Position numbers and translations under genes: made by a program. The notes beneath the pieces are model-generated. The model saw nothing but the letters and a program-made list of their open reading frames with translations, did not search any database and was not told the DNA's origin. From positions 13,524 through 77,523 of the forward strand of contig JAIRRY010000026.1 in NCBI GenBank assembly GCA_031255735.1: a stretch of 64,000 nt of DNA, written 5' to 3'. Shown in pieces: positions 2,553-24,026 of the stretch (position 1 is its first letter; the number at the start of each line of letters is the position of its first letter). The DNA comes from Candidatus Nomurabacteria bacterium (GTDB lineage: Bacteria; Patescibacteriota; Saccharimonadia; Saccharimonadales; Saccharimonadaceae).

Positions 2553-4040
2553 TTAATAGTGTATCATGACGCGCGTGCCGATAGGTGCAAAGTTGTAAAT
2601 AAATTCGGCAGCTTCGTAGGTCATGTTGATACAGCCGTGGCTCATGGGCGTGCCGAAATTGTTGTGCCAGTAGGTGGCGTGAAAAGCGCGGCCGTCGGCA
2701 TCGAAATAACTAATCCACTCAACGTTTGGCACATTGTAAGGAACGCCCCCGATCACCCCTTTCATAGTTTGCACGCGGCGCTTGTGCCAAACCTTAAACT
2801 CGCCTGGCAAAGTGGGCGTAGCGGCAGTGCCAGATGAAATACGCCAGCTGGCGATGGCAGTACTACCAGTCCAGGCCGTGGCAGTTTGAGCGCTAAGGTT
2901 CACCTCTACCCAATGCTCGCCCTCGCCAGCCTTAATAGTCACACGGCTATAGCCAGTTTCCTCAACGTCGAGCTCTTTGCTCATATTCGTGCCACTTCTA
3001 ACCGCCTCAGCCAGCGCACCAGCAACCGCCGCATCATCACGAATTTTATAACCATTCTGCCCAGATGTTAACACGGCTCGTACGTTACCGCCGCTATCAA
3101 CCAAAACTTTCTCGTCGATTGGCGCACTAGCAATATAAGGCGCAACCGTGCCATTTAGAAACCGCTTAATTTCGTCGTGGTTAAAAGTTAGCTCGATTGC
3201 GCCGTCTTTGGGTGTAGCCACCACCCACCTAGCTATATCGGGCGGGTCGGCGTAATAAACTAGCCTGCCCCTGTAGGTTAAATCTAACCTTAGCCCGAGG
3301 CGAGCGTTCATAAATTCGGCAGCCTCTTCGGCAGCCTTATTAGTGATAGTCGGCAACGATTCAGCAGGAGTTAGCTTAACTTTCACCGCCCGCGGATTTT
3401 TTAGCATGCTGGTAATTGTGGCTTCCATATCGACTGGCGTAAGTTTAGTGCCAGGCTTGGCATCGGTCACATTAAAGTGGTTAGCGCCCACATCGTACTG
3501 AATACCCGCTTCTTGCACCCAAACCAGTTGGTCAACAAACGTGGTATTTAAGTATTCCTGTAGCTTCTTGTCGCTGCGAGCCACCACCAGCTCGGCTGGG
3601 TCGCGCGCTAGGTAGTTTAAAGCCGCAATTGGGTGTGTGTCTTTGTAATCCAGTATATTATTTACGGTTTTTTTAACGTCAACCGTAACACCTAGGTCTT
3701 TAGCCGTAGCCGTGGCGGTTTTATCGCCCACAGTAATTTTAGCCTTCATGGCTTTTACCATGATTTCAACGGTTTTAGTAAGTTCAGCGCGATCTTTACC
3801 CGAAACATTAGTGCCCGCCAGGCTGAAACCAGGTAAAACCTTACCGCGAAAAGCCAGATGCGTGAATACAAACAGTCCTGTTGTAATAATTACAACAGAT
3901 GCCACAACCCACAAGGCTAGTTTATGATGTTTACTAAGCCTCCCACGAGGCTTGATATCAATATCATCAAAACTATGCAAAGTATAAACGGGTGCGTAAA
4001 CGCCCGGGTTATAAACATGCTGATGAGCAGTCTTGGCCAC
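2553..4040 (-). CDS. L,D-transpeptidase (YkuD domain) with N-terminal membrane anchor
   Basis: 495 aa with one N-terminal TM helix. The C-terminal YkuD signature is FHATYWHNNFGTPMSHGCINM (catalytic His/Cys). Confidence 0.85.
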   Translation of the reverse strand: MAKTAHQHVYNPGVYAPVYTLHSFDDIDIKPRGRLSKHHKLALWVVASVVIITTGLFVFTHLAFRGKVLPGFSLAGTNVSGKDRAELTKTVEIMVKAMKAKITVGDKTATATAKDLGVTVDVKKTVNNILDYKDTHPIAALNYLARDPAELVVARSDKKLQEYLNTTFVDQLVWVQEAGIQYDVGANHFNVTDAKPGTKLTPVDMEATITSMLKNPRAVKVKLTPAESLPTITNKAAEEAAEFMNARLGLRLDLTYRGRLVYYADPPDIARWVVATPKDGAIELTFNHDEIKRFLNGTVAPYIASAPIDEKVLVDSGGNVRAVLTSGQNGYKIRDDAAVAGALAEAVRSGTNMSKELDVEETGYSRVTIKAGEGEHWVEVNLSAQTATAWTGSTAIASWRISSGTAATPTLPGEFKVWHKRRVQTMKGVIGGVPYNVPNVEWISYFDADGRAFHATYWHNNFGTPMSHGCINMTYEAAEFIYNFAPIGTRVMIHY

Positions 4041-5632: not shown

Positions 5633-5829
5633 CTTTCCTTCCCTCCTAAAAAATAAATAATTCTATCCCAGGCGGTTATTCGCCATAGGAATAATCAATA
5701 AAATTAATTAATACATTAATTTAATTCATTGACTATATGCTATGGCGGATTAATATATAAGAAAGTCTGTTTTTAGAGTAGGTTATTAAAGTGCAAGACA
5801 ATTAAGGCTTACTGAGTTTTTTGTGAAAA

Positions 5830-5940
5830 CAAAAAACTCCATCTAGATGGAGCAAACAATTTACACTGTTCACGCCCACCGTGATATCAAACTAATCATC
5901 TATACAGAATCTTAGTCATTGTCATATAACTTAGATTCTA
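5830..5940 (-). ncRNA. candidate small RNA / leader transcript, copy 1 of a duplicated module
   Basis: Minus-strand TTGACA (5969-5974), a 17-nt spacer, then TACTAT (5946-5951). About 100 nt follow. A perfect 16-nt palindrome CTCCATCTAGATGGAG (5837-5852) plus U6 then forms an intrinsic terminator. The core is nearly identical to 39500-39560. Confidence 0.3.
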
Positions 5941-5974
5941 TTATCATAGTAGCACACATTTTGGTAATTGTCAA

Positions 5975-6120
5975 GAGGGTGGTAATATTAGTGTTTTATA
6001 ATGAAAAATAGCAGTATTTCTAGGATATATAATTACATTAGAAAGGTTTTGGTGGGTTCTAAGTGGAGTGAAAAATGGATAAAAAAGGGTAGTATATTTT
6101 TAACGGTCTGAGCTGGTTAC
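5975..6120. repeat. left copy of an imperfect direct repeat of about 145 bp bracketing the island cassette
   Basis: It aligns by eye with 14299-14446, for example TAGTGTTTTAT, AGGATATATAATTACAT, GGTTT-GGTG and CTAAGT-GAGT-AAAAA. The right end is a decayed version of the tRNA-Pro 3'-end-like segment. Confidence 0.7.
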
Positions 6121-6349
6121 TTTAGATGTTCCATAGCAATAAGGTGTCGGAAGAGGCATGGTAAACCTAGGATAAAGAGTGAGCAAGGTGAGCAACTTTC
6201 TTAATTGTATGTTTGATGATTTTGCTAATGTTTGTGCTATAATTAGAAAGTCCAAATCTGTAAAGCCGTCGTTTTCGACACTTTACTTATTCAAACAAGA
6301 AAAGGGCACTGTACTCGAAGCTTGGTTTCAATAAGAACTTTGCAGGTTT

Positions 6350-6375
6350 GGACACCTAGAGCGGGTGTCCTTTTT
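6350..6375 (+). promoter_or_regulatory. terminator-like hairpin in the leader of the 1656-aa gene
   Basis: Stem GGACACC (6350-6356), a 7-nt loop, stem GGTGTCC (6364-6370), then TTTTT. It lies about 27 nt upstream of the ATG at 6402 and downstream of a TGCTATAAT box (6235-6243). Confidence 0.35.
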
Positions 6376-6401
6376 CTGAGGCGGCCGTTAGAAAGCAAAG
6401 T

Positions 6402-13667: not shown

Positions 13668-14159
13668 TCAAAAAACATTCGTCTTTAAAAACTTGAGGAA
13701 CGATAGGGATTTCAACTGTTCGTTGAAGTTTAACATTATGTTCGCTAGATAATCTATCGCCGACCCCACGGTGCCATCACTGCCACGTTCTACACTCCCA
13801 GATAACCCGCCACTAGACCCACCTCTATCTCCAAAGAAACCTGATGGAACTTTACCAACTATAATATTTGGCTTTTGAGGTTTATTTACCTCTTGAACAC
13901 CAACCATGATTACTACACAGGTCAAAGCGTCAACGATACCATCGTGTTTCTCAATTCCAAATCCTACTAGCTGAGTCAAGAGATTTTTCGTCTTGTCTCT
14001 AGGAAACAGTATCTGTCCATTCTTAATTCGGCGCGAAATCATACTCAACCTAGCTCGTTTATCTTGGTTTGGCTTGTAACACCTAACGTCTATGTAGTAA
14101 TTAGATAATGCCCATATTGAAAGGTTTGAACACTGAGAGAAGAGTGTATTAGTCAACAT
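13668..14159 (-). pseudogene. phage terminase large-subunit C-terminal fragment (prophage remnant)
   Basis: 163-aa ORF. The segment DKRARLSMISRRIKNGQILFPRD...LLTQLVGFGIEKHDGIVDALTCVV matches the conserved C-terminal nuclease tail of large terminases (...v.fP...L..el..F...HDD.vDAl). The ATPase part is absent. Confidence 0.45.
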
Positions 14160-14298: not shown

Positions 14299-14446
14299 TA
14301 GGGTGATGGTAACCTTAGTGTTTTATGATGTAGAATAGTAGTCTTTATAGGATATATAATTACATAAAAAGGTTTGGTGACTCTAAGTAGAGTAAAAACG
14401 ACTAAAAATGGCTTTACATTTTGAATGGTCGGGGTGCTTGGTTGAG
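14299..14446. repeat. right copy of the direct repeat of about 145 bp; contains a duplicated tRNA-Pro(UGG) 3' end plus terminator flank
   Basis: It aligns with 5975-6120. Positions 14418-14436 (ATTTTGAATGGTCGGGGTG) are identical to 22082-22100. That segment covers the last 11 nt of tRNA-Pro(UGG), including CCA, and the 8 nt beyond it. Looser similarity extends over 14393-14436 versus 22056-22100. Confidence 0.75.
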
Positions 14447-14594: not shown

Positions 14595-16220
14595 TCACTG
14601 CCCAACCAGATTGCGCCGATGCCAAGCAAGAGCGCCAAGTAGGCCGAACACCACAGCTGCTAACAAGCACCACGCCAGCGGCGCTACAGTTATATCGTTA
14701 GCCGGCGCTACTGCAAAATGGCGCATTATAGACGTGTTCATGACCCATTCGTCGAGATTTAGTAGCGGCCCAAGCCAAGACATAAAAGCCACCCAACCAA
14801 AATAAACCCAAACTACTAACCCCGCTATGCGTGGCAAAACGCCAAACATCAACACATAAGCACCTATAAATACTAATAGCAGCGGCCAATAAGATAACCC
14901 TGCTAAACCGTAGCTTAAAATGTCTACTGAAAAATCTGAGCAGAGGTTTACACAGATAGCCAGAGCGGCCCCACAAGCAACCAACATAAATGCGCCGCAC
15001 AAAGCCACAGTTGCAGTATGTAAGACCAGCCACTTGGTGCGCGTTAACTTAGTGGAGAGTAAGCTTTCAAGATGTCCGCTCGACTCTTCGCTGCGTAATC
15101 TGCCCATAGCTTGCACAACATAAGCCAGCACCATTACGGTTGCAATAGCCAACATAACGCTTAGAAAAGTAGGGATCATAGCGCCTGTTCCGCCCATTGA
15201 TTTGATTAGCAGGCGCGTAGTTTCGGTTGTTTCATAAACATGGCTCATTTGCGGCACTAGCACACCAACCGTCACGATAAGCGCCAGCGAGCCGATTAAC
15301 CAACCAATAAAAATGTTCTTTTGCAGATACCAAGTAAGGCCAACCGGCGTTCGTAGTAACCTGCTCGCCCGTGCGCGACCCTTGCGGCTAGGCAGTAAAC
15401 CCGCACCAATGTCGCGATGCATGAGTAGCACGAAAGCCAGTGGGATCACTACAAGCACGAAGGCAATCGGGATAAGTAGCGGCCACCATTCTGGAAAAGT
15501 AATGCTACGCAAGGCTTGCATCCAGCCAAACGGGCTTAGATAACTCAGCCAAGCTGGTTGCAGCAAACCATCAGCGCCAACTTTGCCCGTAAAATCACCG
15601 ATGCCGCGTGCTAGAAAAGTTGCGCCCACTAAAACCGCCATGAAACCGCTACTTGAGCGCGTTGACTGAAAAAGCTGCACCACGACAGCCGCAATAGCTG
15701 CCCACACAAAGCCGAACAACCCCATACCCAGGCCGTAGAGCCACGAGCCTTCAACAGTAATATCGGCGCACAGAGTATGCATGCCAAAACCTAATCCAAC
15801 CGCGATAAGTGCGTTAGCCAAAAACGCCACGATCAGTACCGCAATCAGGCTAGTGCCACGATGTGTGCGGCCGCTCAAAATCAACTCTTGCGCGCCCATT
15901 TCCTCATTCTGACGCGTGTGGCGCACCACCAAAAACGCGTTCATAAACGCCACAGCCAATCCCCACCATAAAAGCGTTTCGATGGTTACCAATGCACCAA
16001 AACTCGGCTCATCCAGAAAACCAGTTAATAGCAGCCCAGCAGCATTAGTTTTGAACGCCTCGTAGAGTGTAGTTAAACTCGCCGCATCGCCGTAAGTTTC
16101 TTTCAATATCGGCAGCATATAAAGCAACGTCACCACAATACTAACTATCCAGATCGGCAATTTAATACGATCGCGCCGCAATATGAGCTTAGTTAACGGC
16201 CAGATTCCAGCAAACATCAC
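14595..16220 (-). CDS. ABC-2 type exporter permease (about 12 TM)
   Basis: 541-aa highly hydrophobic ORF. It overlaps the upstream ATPase gene by 4 nt. Confidence 0.7.
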
Positions 16221-16969
16221 TCCTCCTCGTATTGACTTAAGAATATCTTTTCGAGATTAGTATGCTCATGCTTTAGTTCGGCGAGCGAATAGTCGGCCAC
16301 GGCCTTACCTTCACGGATGATAGTAACACGGTCGCACAAAGCCTCAGCCTCGCTTAAAATATGGCTGGAAAGTAGAATAGTTTTACCCTGCTCTTTGAGC
16401 GCTCGCACTTCATCTTGGAAAACCTGCTCCATAAGTGGATCGAGACCACTAGTAGGCTCATCTAAAATATAAAGTGGCACGTCGCTAGCTAACGCCGCCA
16501 CTAACGCCACTTTCTGGCGATTGCCCTTGCTGTAAGTGCGAAACTTTTTAGTTGCATCAAGCTCGAAAACCTTGAGAAGCTCTGCTCTGCGCTGTTCATT
16601 TAAGCCACCCCTTAGTTCACCCAGTAGGTCGATAATCTCGCCGCCAGTGAGGTTTGGCCAAAAGTTCACGTCGCCTGGCACGTACGCCAGCTTTTTATGT
16701 AGCTTAACAGACTTACCCCATGGGTCTTCGCCGAACAGCCTTGCTTCGCCACTCGTTTTCTTGAGTAACCCAAGTAACATGCGAATAGTGGTACTCTTAC
16801 CTGCCCCATTCGGCCCTAAAAAACCGTGTATCTCACCTGGCCCGACTACCAAGCTTAACCCGTTTAAAGCTTTTGTACTACCAAAATATTTGTGCAAGTT
16901 TCTAATCTCGATAATTGGCCTTTGTTCGTTTGGCACCACATCCTCCTTTATAAACGCTAGTGCTTTCAT
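16217..16969 (-). CDS. ABC transporter ATP-binding protein
   Basis: 250 aa with Walker [10 protein letters not shown], signature YSKGNRQKV, Walker [13 protein letters not shown] and H-loop SSHIL. Confidence 0.9.
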
Positions 16970-17049: not shown

Positions 17050-19041
17050 ATGCCACACCTAATTAAAAAATCATCCGGCCGCATTGTCCATCCGTGGGCA
17101 CGGCAGAATTTAGTGATTCTAGCAGTTTGCTTGCTGGTCATTTCCGCCATGTCAATTAGTTATGCTGTACTTGGCACAACAATTAATATTGGTGGCCAAG
17201 CTTCAATTAAACAAACTGAACCAATCCGCATCACTGCCGTTCAACCATCCAGCTCGCAGCCTGCTTGCGCTTCTGCAACTTATCCCCCAACTTGGAGTGA
17301 TACAGCCTTCCAAGTAGACGGCGCGCTAACTGCTTTAGATTGTAAATTAATTTTTGACTTAAAAATCAAAAACGAAACTAACGACATGGTTTATATAAAA
17401 CAGATCTTGGAAGATTCTTTTAATAACTCTGCCAACATGCAATACTCTTTTTCATTCACACTTAATACGCCCAGTTCAGTCATAGCCGCTCAAAGCGAAC
17501 AGCAATTTTCATTAACTTTGAGCTATAAACCAAGTTTGTCGTCACTACCAGCGCTGACTAGCTTTATGGCCAGTTTTCGTTTAGTGATTGACGTTGTTAC
17601 GCCACCAATTTTAGTGGTCAACAATAGCGCACGCAATTTCGAAATTTTTCGCGGCGAAACTAGCTTCACGCCGGCTAATCTTACTAGTCGTTTATCAGCA
17701 TTAGACGATATAGAGGGTAATATTACAAACCAAATCACCAGAACTTGTAGAAAAGGTAACGTCAATATTGCTTGCCCTTCATCATGGTTAGATTGGGATG
17801 CTGGCAATTACACTATCACGTACAATGTTAGTAATTTATTTGGACTAGCAGCAACTCCAGTTACTATGCACATTGAAAACTGGCAGTTTATCAAAATTGC
17901 TAGTGGCCAATATCACGGCATTGCGCTAGGTTCTAATGGTTCTGTTTGGACGTGGGGGTATAATAACCGTGGTCAACGCGGGATTGGTGTGAACGGTCTT
18001 GCCAATACTATCAACAGCGGATCTCCTTCGCTAATTAGTAAAAATGAGTTTGGTGACCAACGCATTATCGACATCGCCGGCGCTCATAATACATCGTGTG
18101 CTGTGGCGGCCAATGGCCGAGCTTATTGTTGGGGTAGCGATGACGGAGGTGCACTTGGTAACGGTGGTAGTAATGGCGATACTAACTCACCATCGGCTGT
18201 CGCAATGCCAAGTGGCATAACTTTCAAGCAAATCTCTGGTTCACATGGCACAAGCTCGGATGCTACATTTGGTGCGCTAGGCTCGGATGGTAACGTTTAT
18301 ACATGGGGAACTGGTTCTAGCTATCGATTAGGCACCGGTAGCACTAATAATGCAACTACTCCGACCCGAATCACCTCAAGTGGCGATATCGTGCAAGTTT
18401 CGCAAGGTAATATAGGAGGCAGCGCCGTAACTGTGTCAGGTGAGGTTTACGTTTGGGGAGCAAATGGGCAAGGCCAGCTAGCGCGTGGCAATATCACAGC
18501 GTCCAACGCCACCACCAGCAAACCTAGTCTGGTCAGCGGCCTGTCTGGCGTTAAACAAGTGAGCTACGGCGGTTATGGTGGTAGTGGCTTTATTGTTTCT
18601 TGCAAAACCGATGGCACAGCCTACGCTTGGGGTTGGGCATGGGGCGTGAGGGGCAATATCCCATCTACTGAAGTATCAAAACCATTACAAATTGCAGGAC
18701 TGAGTGGTGTTCGCTTTGTGACGGCTGGCGTGGATTACGCTCATTATGTGGTGGGCAACGATGTTTGGAGCGTTGGGTATTCTAACTACGGCGAAACTTT
18801 CACTGGCACAGCCACTCGCATCACTCCTATAAAATCTACTTTAAACAACGTCACCGGTAATGTTGGCACAACAAGTGGCGGATGGGATAATGCCTACATA
18901 CTAAACGCTACTGGTACTATGGTCTACTCCATCGGTTATAATAATGGTAATGATCGCGAACTCGGTAGCTCAATAACATCTACAATATCAACCGGCGCAG
19001 TTGTGCCGTGGACACCGACCATTACAATGTTGGAATGGTAA
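17050..19041 (+). CDS. secreted chimeric protein: TasA-like N-terminal module + Ig-like domain + RCC1-repeat beta-propeller
   Basis: 663 aa. The N-terminal anchor/signal region AVLGTTINIGGQASIKQ parallels AALGANLLVNGTASIQS of ORF 21342-21905. Multiple RCC1-type repeats are present (GQYHGIALGSNGSVWTWGYNNRGQRG, AGAHNTSCAVAANGRAYCWGSDDGGALG, VYVWGANGQGQL). Confidence 0.75.
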   Translation: MPHLIKKSSGRIVHPWARQNLVILAVCLLVISAMSISYAVLGTTINIGGQASIKQTEPIRITAVQPSSSQPACASATYPPTWSDTAFQVDGALTALDCKLIFDLKIKNETNDMVYIKQILEDSFNNSANMQYSFSFTLNTPSSVIAAQSEQQFSLTLSYKPSLSSLPALTSFMASFRLVIDVVTPPILVVNNSARNFEIFRGETSFTPANLTSRLSALDDIEGNITNQITRTCRKGNVNIACPSSWLDWDAGNYTITYNVSNLFGLAATPVTMHIENWQFIKIASGQYHGIALGSNGSVWTWGYNNRGQRGIGVNGLANTINSGSPSLISKNEFGDQRIIDIAGAHNTSCAVAANGRAYCWGSDDGGALGNGGSNGDTNSPSAVAMPSGITFKQISGSHGTSSDATFGALGSDGNVYTWGTGSSYRLGTGSTNNATTPTRITSSGDIVQVSQGNIGGSAVTVSGEVYVWGANGQGQLARGNITASNATTSKPSLVSGLSGVKQVSYGGYGGSGFIVSCKTDGTAYAWGWAWGVRGNIPSTEVSKPLQIAGLSGVRFVTAGVDYAHYVVGNDVWSVGYSNYGETFTGTATRITPIKSTLNNVTGNVGTTSGGWDNAYILNATGTMVYSIGYNNGNDRELGSSITSTISTGAVVPWTPTITMLEW

Positions 19042-19085: not shown

Positions 19086-20165
19086 CTACTTTTTGCCTTT
19101 TTGCTGCAAAGATTTCGCCGACAACACATAAGCATAAACCATACCCTGATCTTCAATAGCGAAAACGCTGCGATCGTCGCCAATCCTAAGATGCAAAATT
19201 GGTTGCTGTATAGTATCACGTGCGTCTAATAATTCATTAAAGTCAGTAACTTCAATCAGCTTGTCACGCGATGTTTGTGGCATGTGCTCAACGTTAACTA
19301 TTATCTGATTATACTCATGTAAAATGTGGCCTAATGTCTTCTCATAAGTGGTTCGCTTGGCCTTACGTCGAACAAGTATGGTGATAGATAGCGCCAGCAC
19401 GATTAGAAATACTAAGCCGCTAACACCAGCAGCAATCACAAATAGCAAGTTTTTAGACAGGTCGCGGACTTTTTCCTCAATAGTGCCATCACGATTCAAT
19501 TGATCAGATTCAACCATGATATTAATAGTTCGCTCCGACAACGGAATTTTCAGAGCAACAGCTTGCCTAGTTTCAATCGGTTGAGAAAAGCCGTCATAGG
19601 TTGCTCGCACTTTGACATTTAAAACCACATCAACACTGGCTTCAATCGTTAGCCCATAATCTGAGCGAAAGGCGTTTACTAAATTATTATATTTGCCATA
19701 GTCAACATCAATATTTTCGTGAATACTAAAGCCCCGACCAGATTGGTTCTGAATAGTTCGGCTAGGCTTCAAAACCTCTTCATCTTCGTACAGAATTTTC
19801 TTAGAATCGTTCGGTTCTGTGGCAAGCAGTTTCGCTACTATATCGTAAGTATATTCATACTCTACAGAGTCATCAGCTTGGAAACTATAATTCAATTCGG
19901 CTTTTAAACTATCAATTAGGGATGCAACGTATTGTTTTTTCGAAGGTTGGCACGACTCGGTAAAATAGCTATTTGGCTTTAAACAGACTTGGTAATCAAT
20001 ATTGCCGCTCTCGTGATAAGCAAGCGTACGCGCATCAACATTTAATACCAAAACTGCGAAAGAATAAGCAAAGACAGCAACAGAGACTGCCAATATAATC
20101 ACCCTGGAAACGAAATGACCATCTTTGTTGCTTTCTTTAGTATGTGCTTGTGCTAGGCTTTTCAT
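19086..20165 (-). CDS. 2-TM membrane protein of the SipW operon (possibly DUF5305-like)
   Basis: The ORF track gives 19086-20219. I prefer the ATG at 20165 (MKSLAQ...), which overlaps the upstream TGA by 1 nt and suggests translational coupling. One TM lies near the N-terminus, followed by an extracytoplasmic domain of about 220 aa, a second TM and a cytoplasmic tail. The DUF5305 assignment is from memory of that architecture and its frequent SipW neighbourhood. Confidence 0.55.
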   Translation of the reverse strand: MKSLAQAHTKESNKDGHFVSRVIILAVSVAVFAYSFAVLVLNVDARTLAYHESGNIDYQVCLKPNSYFTESCQPSKKQYVASLIDSLKAELNYSFQADDSVEYEYTYDIVAKLLATEPNDSKKILYEDEEVLKPSRTIQNQSGRGFSIHENIDVDYGKYNNLVNAFRSDYGLTIEASVDVVLNVKVRATYDGFSQPIETRQAVALKIPLSERTINIMVESDQLNRDGTIEEKVRDLSKNLLFVIAAGVSGLVFLIVLALSITILVRRKAKRTTYEKTLGHILHEYNQIIVNVEHMPQTSRDKLIEVTDFNELLDARDTIQQPILHLRIGDDRSVFAIEDQGMVYAYVLSAKSLQQKGKK

Positions 20166-21316
20166 CACAACGCCCTGTCCAGCCAAATAGTTGGCCAACC
20201 AATCAAAGGAATCTTCCACCGAACGACGCCGACCAAATCGTCCTCACGCACTACCCATGCGTCGTTGGCACTGTTATTATCGCCTTTAGTCTGGATTTGC
20301 AAACCGCTAACGCTATTTTTTGTCTCGACTAAACGATGTGTAACTATTTTACCATCATGCCGAAAAGCGACTACCGAACCAAGCTGGATATCTCGTGCCG
20401 CGCCGTAAGTTTTGTCAATAATCACTACATCACCAGTGTTGATTCCGGGTCGCATTGAATCAGAACCGATCGCCATCGCCCAATAACGAAAAACGCCCGA
20501 TACCAATACGACCACTACTACTAATCCGACCATAATAGGCGCCGTAGCCAGAATTTGGCCTGAGCGCTTGTGGCGCCCAGGAATAGGTCGCTTAGTGACA
20601 AAGAATTCATTAAAACGCATAAGTAATAATGTAGGTAGCAAAATAGCCAATATTGAATAAATAAACGGGCCTAGGTCTGGAATTATCGGCGCTACAATCG
20701 GATAAATCGCCATGATCAGCGCGTAAGTTACGGCTGGGCGCCAATCAGATTTATATGACACGAAAGTTAGCATGACGTTCATTGCAATACCACCGAGCAC
20801 CAAACGTCCAACCATTTCGAATATCTCCAGTGGCGCGCCAAGACGGTAAGTTTGTAAACCAACTAAGATAGTAAGTACGCTAAACGCTAGCATCACACCA
20901 ACTAACGTCATTTTATGATTGCCGATTCGTTTTACTAGGGCATAACGCCACAACTCTGTCAGTAACGTCACGCCCGCAACTGGCAATACATTATAGACAA
21001 TCATCAACGGTTCTAAGCTATAGCCATTCCGTAAAAATCCTGTAATCAACCCTAACAGATAAATGAGCACCATATAAAGCAAGATGTAGACTACCACTAT
21101 TTGCGTAGCCTGACCACCGTCAACGCTTCGCCGCAAACGAAACCCAACCACCAACCAAGTTACTACCAAGCAGGCTGCTAGAAATCCTAAATACCACAAG
21201 CTCGATGGGTGAAATACTTTATACACAAAAGTGCAAATCGTAACTACAAACAACGCTAACAGCAGCAACAGTGTTACCTTCACCAAGTTAACTTTTGACG
21301 TGCCACCCTTACTCAC
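20165..21316 (-). CDS. polytopic membrane domain fused to SipW/Sec11-type (S26B) signal peptidase I
   Basis: 383 aa. The N-terminal 250 aa or so contain about 7-8 predicted TM helices. The C-terminus carries the ER/archaeal-type motifs GSDSMRPGINTGDVVII (Ser), KIVTHRLVE (His) and TKGDNNSANDAW. Confidence 0.8.
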   Translation of the reverse strand: MSKGGTSKVNLVKVTLLLLLALFVVTICTFVYKVFHPSSLWYLGFLAACLVVTWLVVGFRLRRSVDGGQATQIVVVYILLYMVLIYLLGLITGFLRNGYSLEPLMIVYNVLPVAGVTLLTELWRYALVKRIGNHKMTLVGVMLAFSVLTILVGLQTYRLGAPLEIFEMVGRLVLGGIAMNVMLTFVSYKSDWRPAVTYALIMAIYPIVAPIIPDLGPFIYSILAILLPTLLLMRFNEFFVTKRPIPGRHKRSGQILATAPIMVGLVVVVVLVSGVFRYWAMAIGSDSMRPGINTGDVVIIDKTYGAARDIQLGSVVAFRHDGKIVTHRLVETKNSVSGLQIQTKGDNNSANDAWVVREDDLVGVVRWKIPLIGWPTIWLDRAL

Positions 21317-21341
21317 GGTGCTTAGTTTTCCCCGTATTCAA

Positions 21342-21905
21342 TTATTGATTGGCTTGCTCATAAGGCACAGCAATACTATAAGTCAAATTATTGATGCCGC
21401 TCGACACCGTTTGTCCTGTATATGTGAAAACCAACTTATAGCCTTTACTGCTGGCCGCCGACAATATATCTCCCTGAGCCGGCGCGCTATTATCATCGTA
21501 AGTTAACGTAGTCGTTATATTATTACTGGATAAGTTATTGATAGTTGGAGCAATTACACCCAATTTAGCGTTCAAAGAGCCTGTGTTAGTTGCCGTGAAG
21601 GTGCAGCTTACAGTATCGCCCCCGGTCTTAAATGACGGCGATATAGTAATCGTATCATTTGCTGAGCTAGATTGACTTACCACTGGTGTTGAGACCGTTG
21701 CCTCACCAGTAGCCGTGCAGGCTGGTGCCGGACTAGTAGTTTCCCAGTGCACCGACCAAGAGGCCGACTGAATACTTGCCGTACCATTAACCAGTAGATT
21801 CGCGCCTAATGCTGCGAACGCTACGCCTAAGCTCAAAACACCGACCACTAAAGAAGCGATCGCGATCATGCGCGTTTTTTTATGATGCTGATTAACTTTA
21901 ACCAT
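21342..21905 (-). CDS. TasA/camelysin-like secreted protein with SipW-type signal peptide
   Basis: 187 aa. The N-terminus is KKTRMIAIASLVVGVLSLGVAFAALGANLLVNGTA. The mature part is Thr/Ser-rich beta-type sequence with FTATNTGSLNAKL. It is the first gene of the SipW operon. Confidence 0.55.
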   Translation of the reverse strand: MVKVNQHHKKTRMIAIASLVVGVLSLGVAFAALGANLLVNGTASIQSASWSVHWETTSPAPACTATGEATVSTPVVSQSSSANDTITISPSFKTGGDTVSCTFTATNTGSLNAKLGVIAPTINNLSSNNITTTLTYDDNSAPAQGDILSAASSKGYKLVFTYTGQTVSSGINNLTYSIAVPYEQANQ

Positions 21906-22054
21906 GTGATTTACTCCATGTTTACTGTTAGTATTATAAAGTAATCATAACATGATGATAAGCATATTGGCAAAGCTTATTTAAAGTTATAATTTTATTG
22001 AAGCAGCTTATTTCCAGCGTTAACACCTTATTTTTCAAGATCGCGCCCAACATA

Positions 22055-22078
22055 ATAAAAACGACCCTAAAAGGTCGT
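22055..22078 (-). terminator. intrinsic terminator after tRNA-Pro(UGG)
   Basis: The minus strand reads ACGACC-UUUUAG-GGUCGU-UUUUAUU, starting 11 nt after the CCA end. Confidence 0.65.
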
Positions 22079-22089
22079 TGTATTTTGAA

Positions 22090-22167
22090 TGGTCGGGGTG
22101 AGAGGACTTGAACCTCCGGCCTCTGCGTCCCAAACGCAGCGCGCTAATCCAACTGCGCCACACCCCG
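22090..22167 (-). tRNA. tRNA-Pro (anticodon UGG)
   Basis: Reverse complement CGGGGUG...CUGCG-UUUGGGA-CGCAG...GGUUCAAGUCC...CACCCCGACCA. The cloverleaf is regular. Confidence 0.9.
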
Positions 22168-22499: not shown

Positions 22500-24026
22500 A
22501 TGAGAATAAAATTCTCGTGGCTCTCATCTCGCCAATGTTATAATCATAACATGTTTAAAGACTTTATTAGAAATCACCTGTTTATGTTTAGTATAATTGG
22601 CGCAGTCGTAGCGGCATCTTTACTGTGCCTGTGGCTGGCTACTGGCCAACAACTTTGGTTCGATGAATCGTACTCGGTGGTGATAGCCAAAAAATCACTA
22701 GGTGACATCATCAGCCTTACTGCCGTAGACGCTCATCCACCGTTTTTTTACACCTTGCTGCATTTTTGGGGCGCGTTGGTCGGCTGGAACGAGCTGGGGC
22801 TACGCGCACTAAGCGTTATTTTTTACGCCGCATCAATTGGCCTAATACTGCTACTAATTAGCAAGCTTTTTTCCAAAAAAACTGCTATCTATTCTGCGCC
22901 CGTTCTAGCCCTTGCGCCGTTTATTATGCGTTACGGCTTTGAAGTGCGCATGTATAGCCTAGCCTCGCTGATAGTTGTAGGTTCGGCTTTCGCGCTTTAC
23001 TACGCCATGAAAACTAACAAAAACCGCTACTGGATCATCTACGGACTACTGGTAGCACTTGGTGTCTGGACGCTGTATATGACATTTATCGTATTCTTGG
23101 CGCAGCTTATCATTCTAGTTATGCACACGCTCAAAAAGCGCGGTAAATGGTTTAAGCAAAAGTGGGTCCTCGCCTACTTTGGGGCAGTTTTACTTTACTT
23201 GCCGTGGATACCGAATGCTCTGCACCAGATGAGCGGCGGGGCGCTGAGCGGCGCTAACGTTACGTTTGGCTTCAGCCAATTACTTAATGTATTTTCGTTC
23301 GGCCTGATATATGAACCCAGCAACCAGTGCGATGTTATCTATTGGATTTTGCTAGCTTCAATACTGCTGGCAACCGCTGTGCTAATAAGAAATGTGCTTA
23401 GGAAAAAGAATACCGACGCCAAAAACTTGTGGTTTTTGATGCTACACTTTGCGCTACCGCTCGCCATCTTCATGATCATCGCTTCACCGATTTTCGGTTG
23501 GAAAATTTACCTTGAACGCTACTTGGCGCAATTTATCATTTTCGGTTATGCCAGCCTGGCCGTAGTTTTTGCGTCGAACATTTTTGCCAACAAAAAGCCA
23601 ATTTACAGCGCTTATTTTGCGGTGCTAATTGTACTGTTAATTGGCGTAGCCAACCTATCCCAAACTGGCAATTTTAACTACCAGCGAATGGATAAACCTG
23701 CCAACCACGACATTGCTAATATCGTGAGTAAATATTGCAAACAGTCGATTGTGGTAGACGACCTTTATTTTTATATTGAGCTTGCGCCGTACATGAGCAG
23801 CGATTGCAACTACTACTTTTCGTCGCCTGGCGAAGTTGATTTTGTGGGTGGCTATGCGCCGCTGCATGCTTCCAACAGACGCATCGCAAAACCAAGTGAG
23901 ATTAACACAAAGCAATTAGTTGTAGTAGATGTAAAACCTAAGGCCAATTTTAAACCGAGCGCGGCATACAAGAAAATCTCCGAAAAAGAGATGACTTGGC
24001 GCAGGTTTACTGTTTATTCTCGCTGA
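22500..24026 (+). CDS. GT39/ArnT-like (PMT_2-type) membrane glycosyltransferase
   Basis: 508 aa, polytopic. The first-loop motif is WFDESYSVVIAKK...DAHPPFFY, typical of the dolichyl/undecaprenyl-phosphate-sugar transferase family. The start is uncertain, and the ATG at 22551 is an alternative. Confidence 0.7.
   Translation: MRIKFSWLSSRQCYNHNMFKDFIRNHLFMFSIIGAVVAASLLCLWLATGQQLWFDESYSVVIAKKSLGDIISLTAVDAHPPFFYTLLHFWGALVGWNELGLRALSVIFYAASIGLILLLISKLFSKKTAIYSAPVLALAPFIMRYGFEVRMYSLASLIVVGSAFALYYAMKTNKNRYWIIYGLLVALGVWTLYMTFIVFLAQLIILVMHTLKKRGKWFKQKWVLAYFGAVLLYLPWIPNALHQMSGGALSGANVTFGFSQLLNVFSFGLIYEPSNQCDVIYWILLASILLATAVLIRNVLRKKNTDAKNLWFLMLHFALPLAIFMIIASPIFGWKIYLERYLAQFIIFGYASLAVVFASNIFANKKPIYSAYFAVLIVLLIGVANLSQTGNFNYQRMDKPANHDIANIVSKYCKQSIVVDDLYFYIELAPYMSSDCNYYFSSPGEVDFVGGYAPLHASNRRIAKPSEINTKQLVVVDVKPKANFKPSAAYKKISEKEMTWRRFTVYSR

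Follow-up and report, generated by a model that had tools for sequence, protein, structure and literature searches.

The closest described counterparts of the locus analysed here are the abpX loci, reported from Thermoproteota, Bacillota and Chloroflexota in a January 2026 preprint (bioRxiv 10.64898/2026.01.04.697558). These loci combine a type I signal peptidase (SPase I) of ten transmembrane (TM) helices with a DUF5305 accessory protein, AbpX-like minor subunits and tip proteins, and in the same preprint the pairing of SPase I with DUF5305 is likened to the eukaryotic signal peptidase complex. We have analysed a stretch of 64,000 nucleotides (nt) from a Candidatus Nomurabacteria bacterium (contig JAIRRY010000026.1, positions 13,524 to 77,523; the whole stretch is referred to as the window), which contains three packed genes, here called A, B and C, and a fourth, convergent gene, D. 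We consider it probable that they make up a surface-fibre locus of the abpX type (TasA superfamily), carried by a Saccharibacteria-like bacterium of the candidate phyla radiation (CPR) from a termite gut.

CPR bacteria such as the Saccharibacteria live attached to a host, and the means of attachment are partly known: type IV pili and, since 2026, Pam pili. The Pam pilus of Ca. Mycosynbacter amalyticus (PamA/PamB) resembles the fibre proposed here in being a thin, donor-strand-type filament of the Saccharimonadia with a proposed role in host contact (PMC13278184). Unlike the window system, however, its pilins are two-domain proteins of 39–55 kDa that are assembled with membrane-anchored PapD/FimC-like chaperones, and neither a signal peptidase nor DUF5305 nor TasA is mentioned in the paper (PMC13278184). 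The Pam pilus is a system separate from the locus in the window.

Another parallel is the tafi system, the Tat-fimbriae of haloarchaea (TafA/C/E, TafD and TafG, the last a DUF5305 protein; PMC11821415, PMC12337348), whose donor-strand subunits are accompanied, as are A and D in the window, by genes for a dedicated S26 peptidase and a DUF5305 protein. It is the sole system of this kind in which the peptidase requirement has been shown genetically, deletion of the TafD peptidase in Haloarcula having abolished both TafA processing and fibres (PMC11821415). The tafi subunits use Tat signals, whereas a twin-arginine motif is absent from A and from D, and TafD has four TM helices and an N-terminal peptidase domain, whereas that of B is C-terminal.

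The tapA-sipW-tasA operon of Bacillus subtilis is like the window in that a Ser-His peptidase of the endoplasmic reticulum (ER) type is encoded beside a secreted beta-sandwich fibre protein, and a PGD...N-x-G-S-L motif is common to both. The Bacillus locus consists of tapA, sipW and tasA and is not known to include a DUF5305 gene. TapA is absent from the locus in the window, and SipW, at ~190 amino acids (aa; the NCBIfam model has 189 positions), has no counterpart of B's polytopic domain. The TasA fibres themselves are built by donor-strand exchange (PDB 8AUR).

An earlier sequence-only reading of the window had proposed a SipW-type peptidase operon with a TasA/camelysin-like substrate and had held such a system in an ultra-small bacterium to be undescribed. 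The second of these claims stands in part: we found no report of TasA/AbpX-type fibres in CPR bacteria in the searchable literature, but the type of locus has already been outlined for archaea and for other bacterial phyla in papers of 2025–2026. Its variant features here are a non-acidic strand, a Ser/Thr-rich subunit and an RCC1 head.

Gene A encodes an AbpX-like protein

The four genes of the locus are as follows.

21342..21905, minus strand: gene A, AbpX-like (TasA-superfamily) putative major fibre subunit, 187 aa (open reading frame and family comparison)
20165..21316, minus strand: gene B, predicted dedicated signal peptidase, 383 aa (open reading frame and S26 domain)
19086..20165, minus strand: gene C, DUF5305 protein of 359 aa, with its ATG at 20165 and its end at 19086 (Pfam)
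17050..19041, plus strand: gene D, secreted RCC1 protein, 663 aa, convergent to A-B-C (Pfam and family profile)

As the sequence-only reading had it, A, B and C are three co-oriented, closely packed open reading frames (ORFs). B lies 25 nt downstream of A, and the TGA that ends B runs into the ATG of C with a single common base at 20165 (GTGATGAAA, TGATG). Gene C has an alternative start, a GTG at 20219, which would give 377 aa.

The mature form of A is predicted to have 156 aa, with a pI of 4.45, 30% Ser+Thr and 5% Asp+Glu, and A contains two conserved cysteines (C63 and C101). In an exhaustive HMMER search, its family comprised 1750 cluster representatives at E <= 0.001. The match is always N-terminal, in proteins of 170–1168 aa, the long members of which end in adhesin-type domains (LRR_5/BspA, DUF6273, DUF11 and Listeria-Bacteroides repeats) and also in dockerin.

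The homology of A is to AbpX, the fibre protein of the archaeon Pyrodictium abyssi (9RHP/9SJ2), which is likewise a small subunit (~150–165 aa when mature) and is homologous in both strand and core. When an alignment of 108 A-family sequences was compared with the AbpX profile, hhalign gave 96.9% (E 1.3e-10) over 161 columns; with the signal peptide removed, the mature region gave 95.0% (E 4e-8), and the core without signal peptide and strand gave 95.1% (E 3e-8). An alignment of 17 A sequences reached 74.7% (E 2.6e-5), and ten column-shuffled AbpX controls gave at most 0.3%, with E at or above 0.2. The AbpX profile, made from five sequences, is shallow, since the homologue search returned just five close Pyrodictium sequences. 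When the PDB was searched with the A-family profile, the AbpX entries 9rhp and 9sj2 ranked second and third of 177,635 sequences; the shallow 17-sequence alignment returned just potassium-channel helices matching the signal peptide. A is Ser/Thr-rich by comparison with AbpX (20% Ser+Thr), and its cysteine pair lies at positions other than those in AbpX.

With B. subtilis TasA, by contrast, hhalign gave 37.5% for the full length and 6% for the mature protein, over 30–31 columns, and the similarity is confined to the PGD...N-x-G-S-L motif at TasA residues 52–82 (the mature part of the TasA query, residues 28–261, is identical to 8AUR). Because the profile homology is full-length for AbpX and restricted to a motif for TasA, A belongs to the TasA superfamily as a relative of AbpX and is not a member of the TasA/camelysin family. 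The idea of a TasA-like substrate therefore survives in its broad sense, by way of AbpX, and fails in its narrow one.

For the same reason, we think it extremely improbable that these genes form a genuine TasA/SipW/TapA system of the Bacillus kind, with A as the orthologue of TasA or camelysin. The wording of the signal peptide is similar, and the two stretches of A in which a TasA likeness had been seen, LSLGVAFAALGANLLVNGTA and FTATNTGSLNAKL, are indeed present. In addition to the motif that aligns with TasA, there are a few weak cross-matches within the A family: Peptidase_M73 of Pfam in 3 of 108 members, the NCBIfam TasA model in 2 of 108, and TIGR04089, touched by one of the 108 (E 0.0049). 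A itself, however, has no match in Pfam or NCBIfam at E up to 1, the Peptidase_M73/TasA models (PF12389, NF046066) and the SipW-signal models included, and we rejected its membership of that family on this ground and on the 30 columns of the TasA alignment. D, too, is without a match to the SipW-signal models of NCBIfam at E up to 1 (the presence of TIGR04088 in the library was not confirmed). B does not reach the SipW cut-off (see below), there is no TapA-like gene at the locus, and mature TasA has 234 aa as against the 156 of mature A.

Signal peptide, cleavage site and predicted donor strand

Two features at the N-terminus of A bear on how it might be processed and assembled.

21813..21905, minus strand: predicted signal peptide of A, residues 1–31, with a QHHKKTR n-region, a hydrophobic core and G-V-A-F-A
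21771..21812, minus strand: predicted donor strand of A, residues 32–45, ALGANLLVNGTASI, hydrophobic at even positions

The mature N-terminus of AbpX that has been used experimentally is TYA/QWSETLSLSATIS, the slash marking the cleavage point (bioRxiv 10.64898/2026.01.04.697558). VAFA/ALGANLLVNGTASI of A aligns in register with YA/QWSETLSLSATIS (AbpX W2–I12), and by alignment with the AbpX site, TYA/QWSETL, cleavage of A is likely to fall after A31 (AFA31/A32). The G-[FY]-A triplet recurs in the listed subunits of relatives; D has S-Y-A, with Ser in place of Gly. One relative, L005, reads FA/AYSETLKINGT, which is almost the wording of AbpX, so that some relatives keep the aromatic/acidic signature. 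The alternative of cleavage after NGTA43 was judged less likely, on account of the AbpX alignment, the recurring G-[FY]-A and the conserved alternating strand. A [FY]-A cleavage site followed by an alternating strand, as predicted here, is also a feature of the abpX loci.

No other segment of the family is as well conserved as the strand, which has a mean column conservation of 0.63 as compared to 0.30–0.39 for most of the body; the PGD...N-x-G motif of the family has 0.57. In the monomer model of A (predicted local distance difference test score, pLDDT, 77), a helical signal peptide is followed by an unstructured segment (residues 31–44, pLDDT <50) and then by a confidently predicted beta-sandwich. 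Taking the conservation of the strand together with its register, we infer that ALGANLLVNGTASI would act as a donor strand.

Within the signal peptide, the QHHKKTR n-region (residues 6–12, 21870–21890) is near-invariant in 17 close homologues (Q6, H7, H8, T11 and R12). N-regions are not usually conserved to this degree, and specific recognition on the cytoplasmic side is suggested.

A dedicated signal peptidase of the ER/archaeal type

B is an S26B enzyme of the ER/archaeal type, as had been claimed: it scores 82.6 bits against TIGR02228 (archaeal/ER-type SPase I; cut-off 51.85), whereas against the bacterial LepB-type model, TIGR02227, it scores 26.7 bits and does not reach the cut-off of 47. 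Nor does it reach the cut-off of the Bacillus SipW equivalog, NF046067 (60.9 bits against 190); B is SipW-like in function, though not an orthologue of SipW. The peptidase motifs that had been picked out by eye (GSDSMRP, THRLV and TKGDNN) are real, in that they fall on residues that are invariant in 24 B homologues down to 27% identity, namely S287 (GSxSMxP), H327-R328, D346 (GDxN) and D352. Judged from this alignment, the catalytic set is Ser-His-Asp and not Ser-Lys.

The peptidase domain occupies the C-terminal third of B, its last ~130 residues, and is preceded by a polytopic region; the sequence-only reading of these genes mentioned neither this region nor gene D. In the AlphaFold model (pLDDT 83.5), nine membrane helices, as compared to the ten reported for the SPase I of abpX loci, are followed by a beta-rich catalytic domain. 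The best Foldseek matches of B are human SEC11A and SEC11C (E 7e-5 to 9e-5), and the next is the streptococcal pilus-associated SipA. The eukaryotic signal peptidase complex (SEC11A/C, SPCS1-3; 7P2P/7P2Q) thus provides, in its catalytic subunit, the best structural match to the catalytic domain of B, and Ser-His-Asp is common to both. Unlike that complex, B has extra membrane helices fused to the enzyme, for which no similarity to the SPCS subunits was found.

The N-domain of B (20567–21316) retains the invariant residues Y86, G89, N109, P112, E121-x-x-R124 and P228, on which basis we take it to be under selection. Its first ~250 residues match no Pfam family, and no solved structure among the Foldseek rows listed. 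CPBP proteins are marked by the motifs EExxxR, FxxxH and HxxxN. A CPBP/CAAX-protease-like (PF02517) N-domain was considered and rejected: none of the 24 homologues matches at E up to 1, of the motifs just E121-x-x-R124 has an invariant counterpart, there is no invariant His in residues 1–250, and no CPBP structure is found in the best 50 Foldseek rows.

The association of B with its neighbors extends well beyond the window. The loci compared were contigs encoding relatives plus one pattern-limited scan of GTDB genomes, a set that cannot yield prevalence. Within it, an A-type gene lies directly upstream of B in three independent metagenome or genome loci (L001, L003 and L005) and in 10 of 12 GTDB loci, that is, in every locus holding that flank; L015 and L017 are uninformative on this point, as they begin at or near the peptidase gene. 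A DUF5305 gene follows B in L001, L003 and L005 (in the last with 29.3 bits against a cut-off of 29), and larger proteins with the A module are encoded downstream of C in L003, L010 and L016. L001 also carries the same convergent RCC1 gene as D. The combination anticipated by the sequence-only reading, a dedicated ER/archaeal-type peptidase beside a probable substrate and a DUF5305 partner, is therefore syntenic in every relative with enough flank.

These loci come from metagenome-assembled genomes (MAGs) of Saccharibacteria or labelled ‘Nomurabacteria’, and from uncultured Bacilli. The two phyla interleave in the peptidase tree, where a Bacillales MAG groups with three Saccharibacteria in one clade with 100/99 support, a pattern that suggests exchange of the gene between phyla, or binning errors. 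In L007, the closest relative with a genome record, A-type genes stand on both sides of the peptidase gene (2968–3555 and 5827–6387, encoding 195 and 186 aa), while the window has a single A-type gene.

It might be supposed that B is simply the housekeeping type I signal peptidase, and that its position beside A, C and D is without functional meaning; CPR genomes are, after all, reduced. However, A, B and C stay in this order in both phyla, among peptidases that are ~27–68% identical; B, with its ER/archaeal-type enzyme and additional polytopic domain, is of the type reported specifically at abpX loci; and the peptidase of the Haloarcula locus is specific for the fibre subunit. We consequently regard a housekeeping role as very unlikely.

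The DUF5305 protein C and the RCC1 protein D

That the third gene encodes a DUF5305 protein with two TM segments, as the sequence-only reading had surmised from its architecture, was borne out: C scores 56 bits against PF17231 (cut-off 29) and has hydrophobic segments at residues 22–40 and 241–259. Its predicted layout is a short N-terminus, the first TM segment, an outside domain of ~200 aa, the second TM segment and a cytoplasmic tail of ~100 aa. By analogy with the described systems, C is a putative accessory subunit of peptidase B.

D is homologous to AbpX at its N-terminus. Its residues 24–171 match the A-family profile (E 1.5e-6 among the 246 ORFs of the window), and the match spans the signal peptide, the strand (SYA/VLGTTINIGGQASI) and the beta-sandwich. 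BLASTP of A against D gave no match, and it takes the family profile to reveal the relation. The C-terminal part of D is an RCC1 beta-propeller (residues ~277–640; RCC1/WD40_RLD above cut-off). D may be viewed as a putative minor or adhesin subunit, comparable to the larger module proteins which, along with a many-TM SPase I of ~380 aa and DUF5305, the abpX loci also encode. The RCC1 propeller as head domain, the lack of a regulator and of an SLH or LPXTG anchor, and a host in the CPR/Saccharibacteria distinguish the locus in the window from the abpX loci of the preprint.

A proposed route of fibre assembly

The scheme that we favor draws on three described systems, AbpX (by cryo-electron microscopy), tafi (by deletion of TafD) and TasA, and its steps are proposed by analogy with them. 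A and D would be exported by Sec, using their long, family-specific signal peptide, and B, probably with C as its accessory, would cut after G-[FY]-A, at A31/A32 in A and at A39/V40 in D. This cut would free an N-terminal strand of alternating hydrophobic residues (ALGANLLVNGTASI in A), which could then enter the beta-sandwich of a neighboring subunit by donor-strand complementation. Because the freed strand would insert directly into the next subunit, A is proposed to polymerise into a thin fibre with no help from chaperone or usher proteins. D, having the same strand and sandwich as A, would be built into that fibre, with its RCC1 propeller as the binding head.

A number of observations speak against an AbpX-type fibre and have to be set beside the evidence given above. 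Foldseek with the full-length monomer model of A returned no match at E <= 0.001; the best matches are generic immunoglobulin (Ig)-like sandwiches (GAE domains, FimG), and AbpX is not among the best 50 rows. The TasA fibre, 8aur_A, comes at rank 47 (E 0.26, TM 0.30), so that for TasA proper the model comes close to showing no structural similarity, an outcome that the sequence-only reading had named as telling against a TasA-like substrate. The HMMER E-values for AbpX in the PDB search are borderline (0.036 and 0.085). The predicted strand of A has Leu at position 2, where AbpX has an aromatic residue, and Ala at position 4, where AbpX has an acidic one, and the Asp+Glu content of 5% compares to ~15% in AbpX. 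The gene next to an archaeal AbpX homologue (L019) encodes an S26 protein of 380 aa, a pairing like that of A and B which in itself speaks for the fibre model, and the full-length comparison of the B family with this protein gave an hhalign value of 99.4%, carried by the catalytic domain; since the polytopic domain of B alone gave no significant match to this peptidase (E 0.097), the comparison shows shared architecture only, and not homology of the N-domains. Finally, the locus encodes neither an LPXTG nor an SLH anchor protein, and a search for RNA evidence gave none: the DNA of the window was found in one termite-gut metagenome run, a DNA run (the listed termite-gut runs are all DNA-labelled).

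In the N-domain alignment with the archaeal AbpX-linked peptidase, which as just noted is unsupported, E-M-V-R stands opposite E121-x-x-R124 of B.

Position 2 of the strand is Leu in 117 of 149 family members, and at position 4 Thr is found in 79 of the 149 and Glu in 9, so that Leu2 and Ala/Thr4 stand against the aromatic-2 and acidic-4 of AbpX. The pI of 4.45 compares to ~4 for the calcium-responsive signature of AbpX. Because the aromatic/acidic calcium-binding residues of the strand are missing, calcium-triggered assembly as in AbpX is unlikely for A.

Several of these observations would also be accounted for if A and D were surface proteins that do not polymerise, the shared module serving as a stalk for export or display, B and C acting as a processing or release peptidase, and A forming an abundant coat or matrix. 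In keeping with this, the module is found at the N-terminus of many multi-domain surface proteins (170–1168 aa), Foldseek yields just a generic Ig-like sandwich, and the strand has neither the calcium nor the aromatic features of its AbpX counterpart. On the other hand, it is the 14-residue alternating strand after the cleavage site that is best conserved, which would be unexpected for a stalk and is typical of donor strands. The homology to AbpX spans both strand and core, and, as in fibre loci, a minimal subunit gene and the peptidase gene always occur together. We therefore think a display stalk unlikely, though it deserves to be taken seriously, and retain the fibre as the probable product of the locus.

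A further, rather speculative version of the fibre model, to which we give little credence as it stands, is that B and C together form a membrane assembly platform. Such a platform would recognize QHHKKTR and G-[FY]-A, couple cleavage to insertion of the strand into the preceding subunit, and so act as a polymerase that needs no chaperone or usher. Its product would be a Ser/Thr-rich, calcium-independent fibre, possibly O-glycosylated, with an RCC1 propeller by which this epibiotic cell would grip its host.

If the fibre model is true, the Saccharibacteria would possess a second donor-strand fibre, unrelated to the Pam pilus, with swappable heads (RCC1 in this case), which would make it a candidate host-recognition device. 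The TasA/AbpX design of matrix fibre would then extend to ultra-small bacteria, and the peptidase tree hints at exchange between Saccharibacteria and Bacilli. The locus would also offer a natural variant, free of the calcium signature, with which to probe the trigger of AbpX-type polymerisation, and a signal peptidase with a polytopic domain and a DUF5305 partner represents a biochemically unstudied class.

Genomic setting of the locus

A possible promoter region lies upstream of gene A.

21933..21973, minus strand: two overlapping sigma-70-like promoter matches 5′ of gene A (TTATCA-17-TATAAT and TTGCCA-18-TATGAT)

Each of these candidates agrees with the consensus at 10 of 12 positions, and consensus match was the only measure applied. 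A GGAG is located 8 nt ahead of the ATG of gene A. A scan for terminators between the convergent genes C and D gave none that was convincing.

The locus is enclosed by a 32-nt direct repeat, 84% identical between its two copies (14405–14436 and 22069–22100), which takes in the 3′ end of tRNA-Pro(UGG) and a further 20 nt past it. The repeats bound 7.66 kb that contain tRNA-Pro(CGG), an ABC transporter pair and the entire fibre locus, an att-like arrangement that fits acquisition of the locus as an island; no integrase was seen within the 7.66 kb. Just outside the left repeat lies an ORF of 163 aa (13668–14159, minus strand) ending in GIVDALTCVV, which resembles the C-terminus of phage terminase large subunits, and the ORF may be the remnant of a mobile element.

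The ABC transporter pair, an ATPase of 250 aa and a multi-TM permease of 541 aa (14595–16969, minus strand), adjoins gene D. In L003, an ABC_tran and 12TM_1 pair is found near the fibre cassette, and in L005 an FtsX-type permease is nearby, so that the association of ABC transporters with fibre cassettes may be recurrent, or may be due to chance.

On the other side, just past two tRNA-Pro genes upstream of gene A, is a gene for a polytopic PMT_2 protein of 508 aa (22500–24026, plus strand; 56.4 bits against a cut-off of 26.1), of the protein mannosyl/glycosyltransferase type with a GT-C fold. Given that 30% of A is Ser+Thr, this protein could be a glycosylation partner of A. In L003, a GT2 gene and a gene for an unassigned protein of 484 aa lie upstream of the subunit genes.

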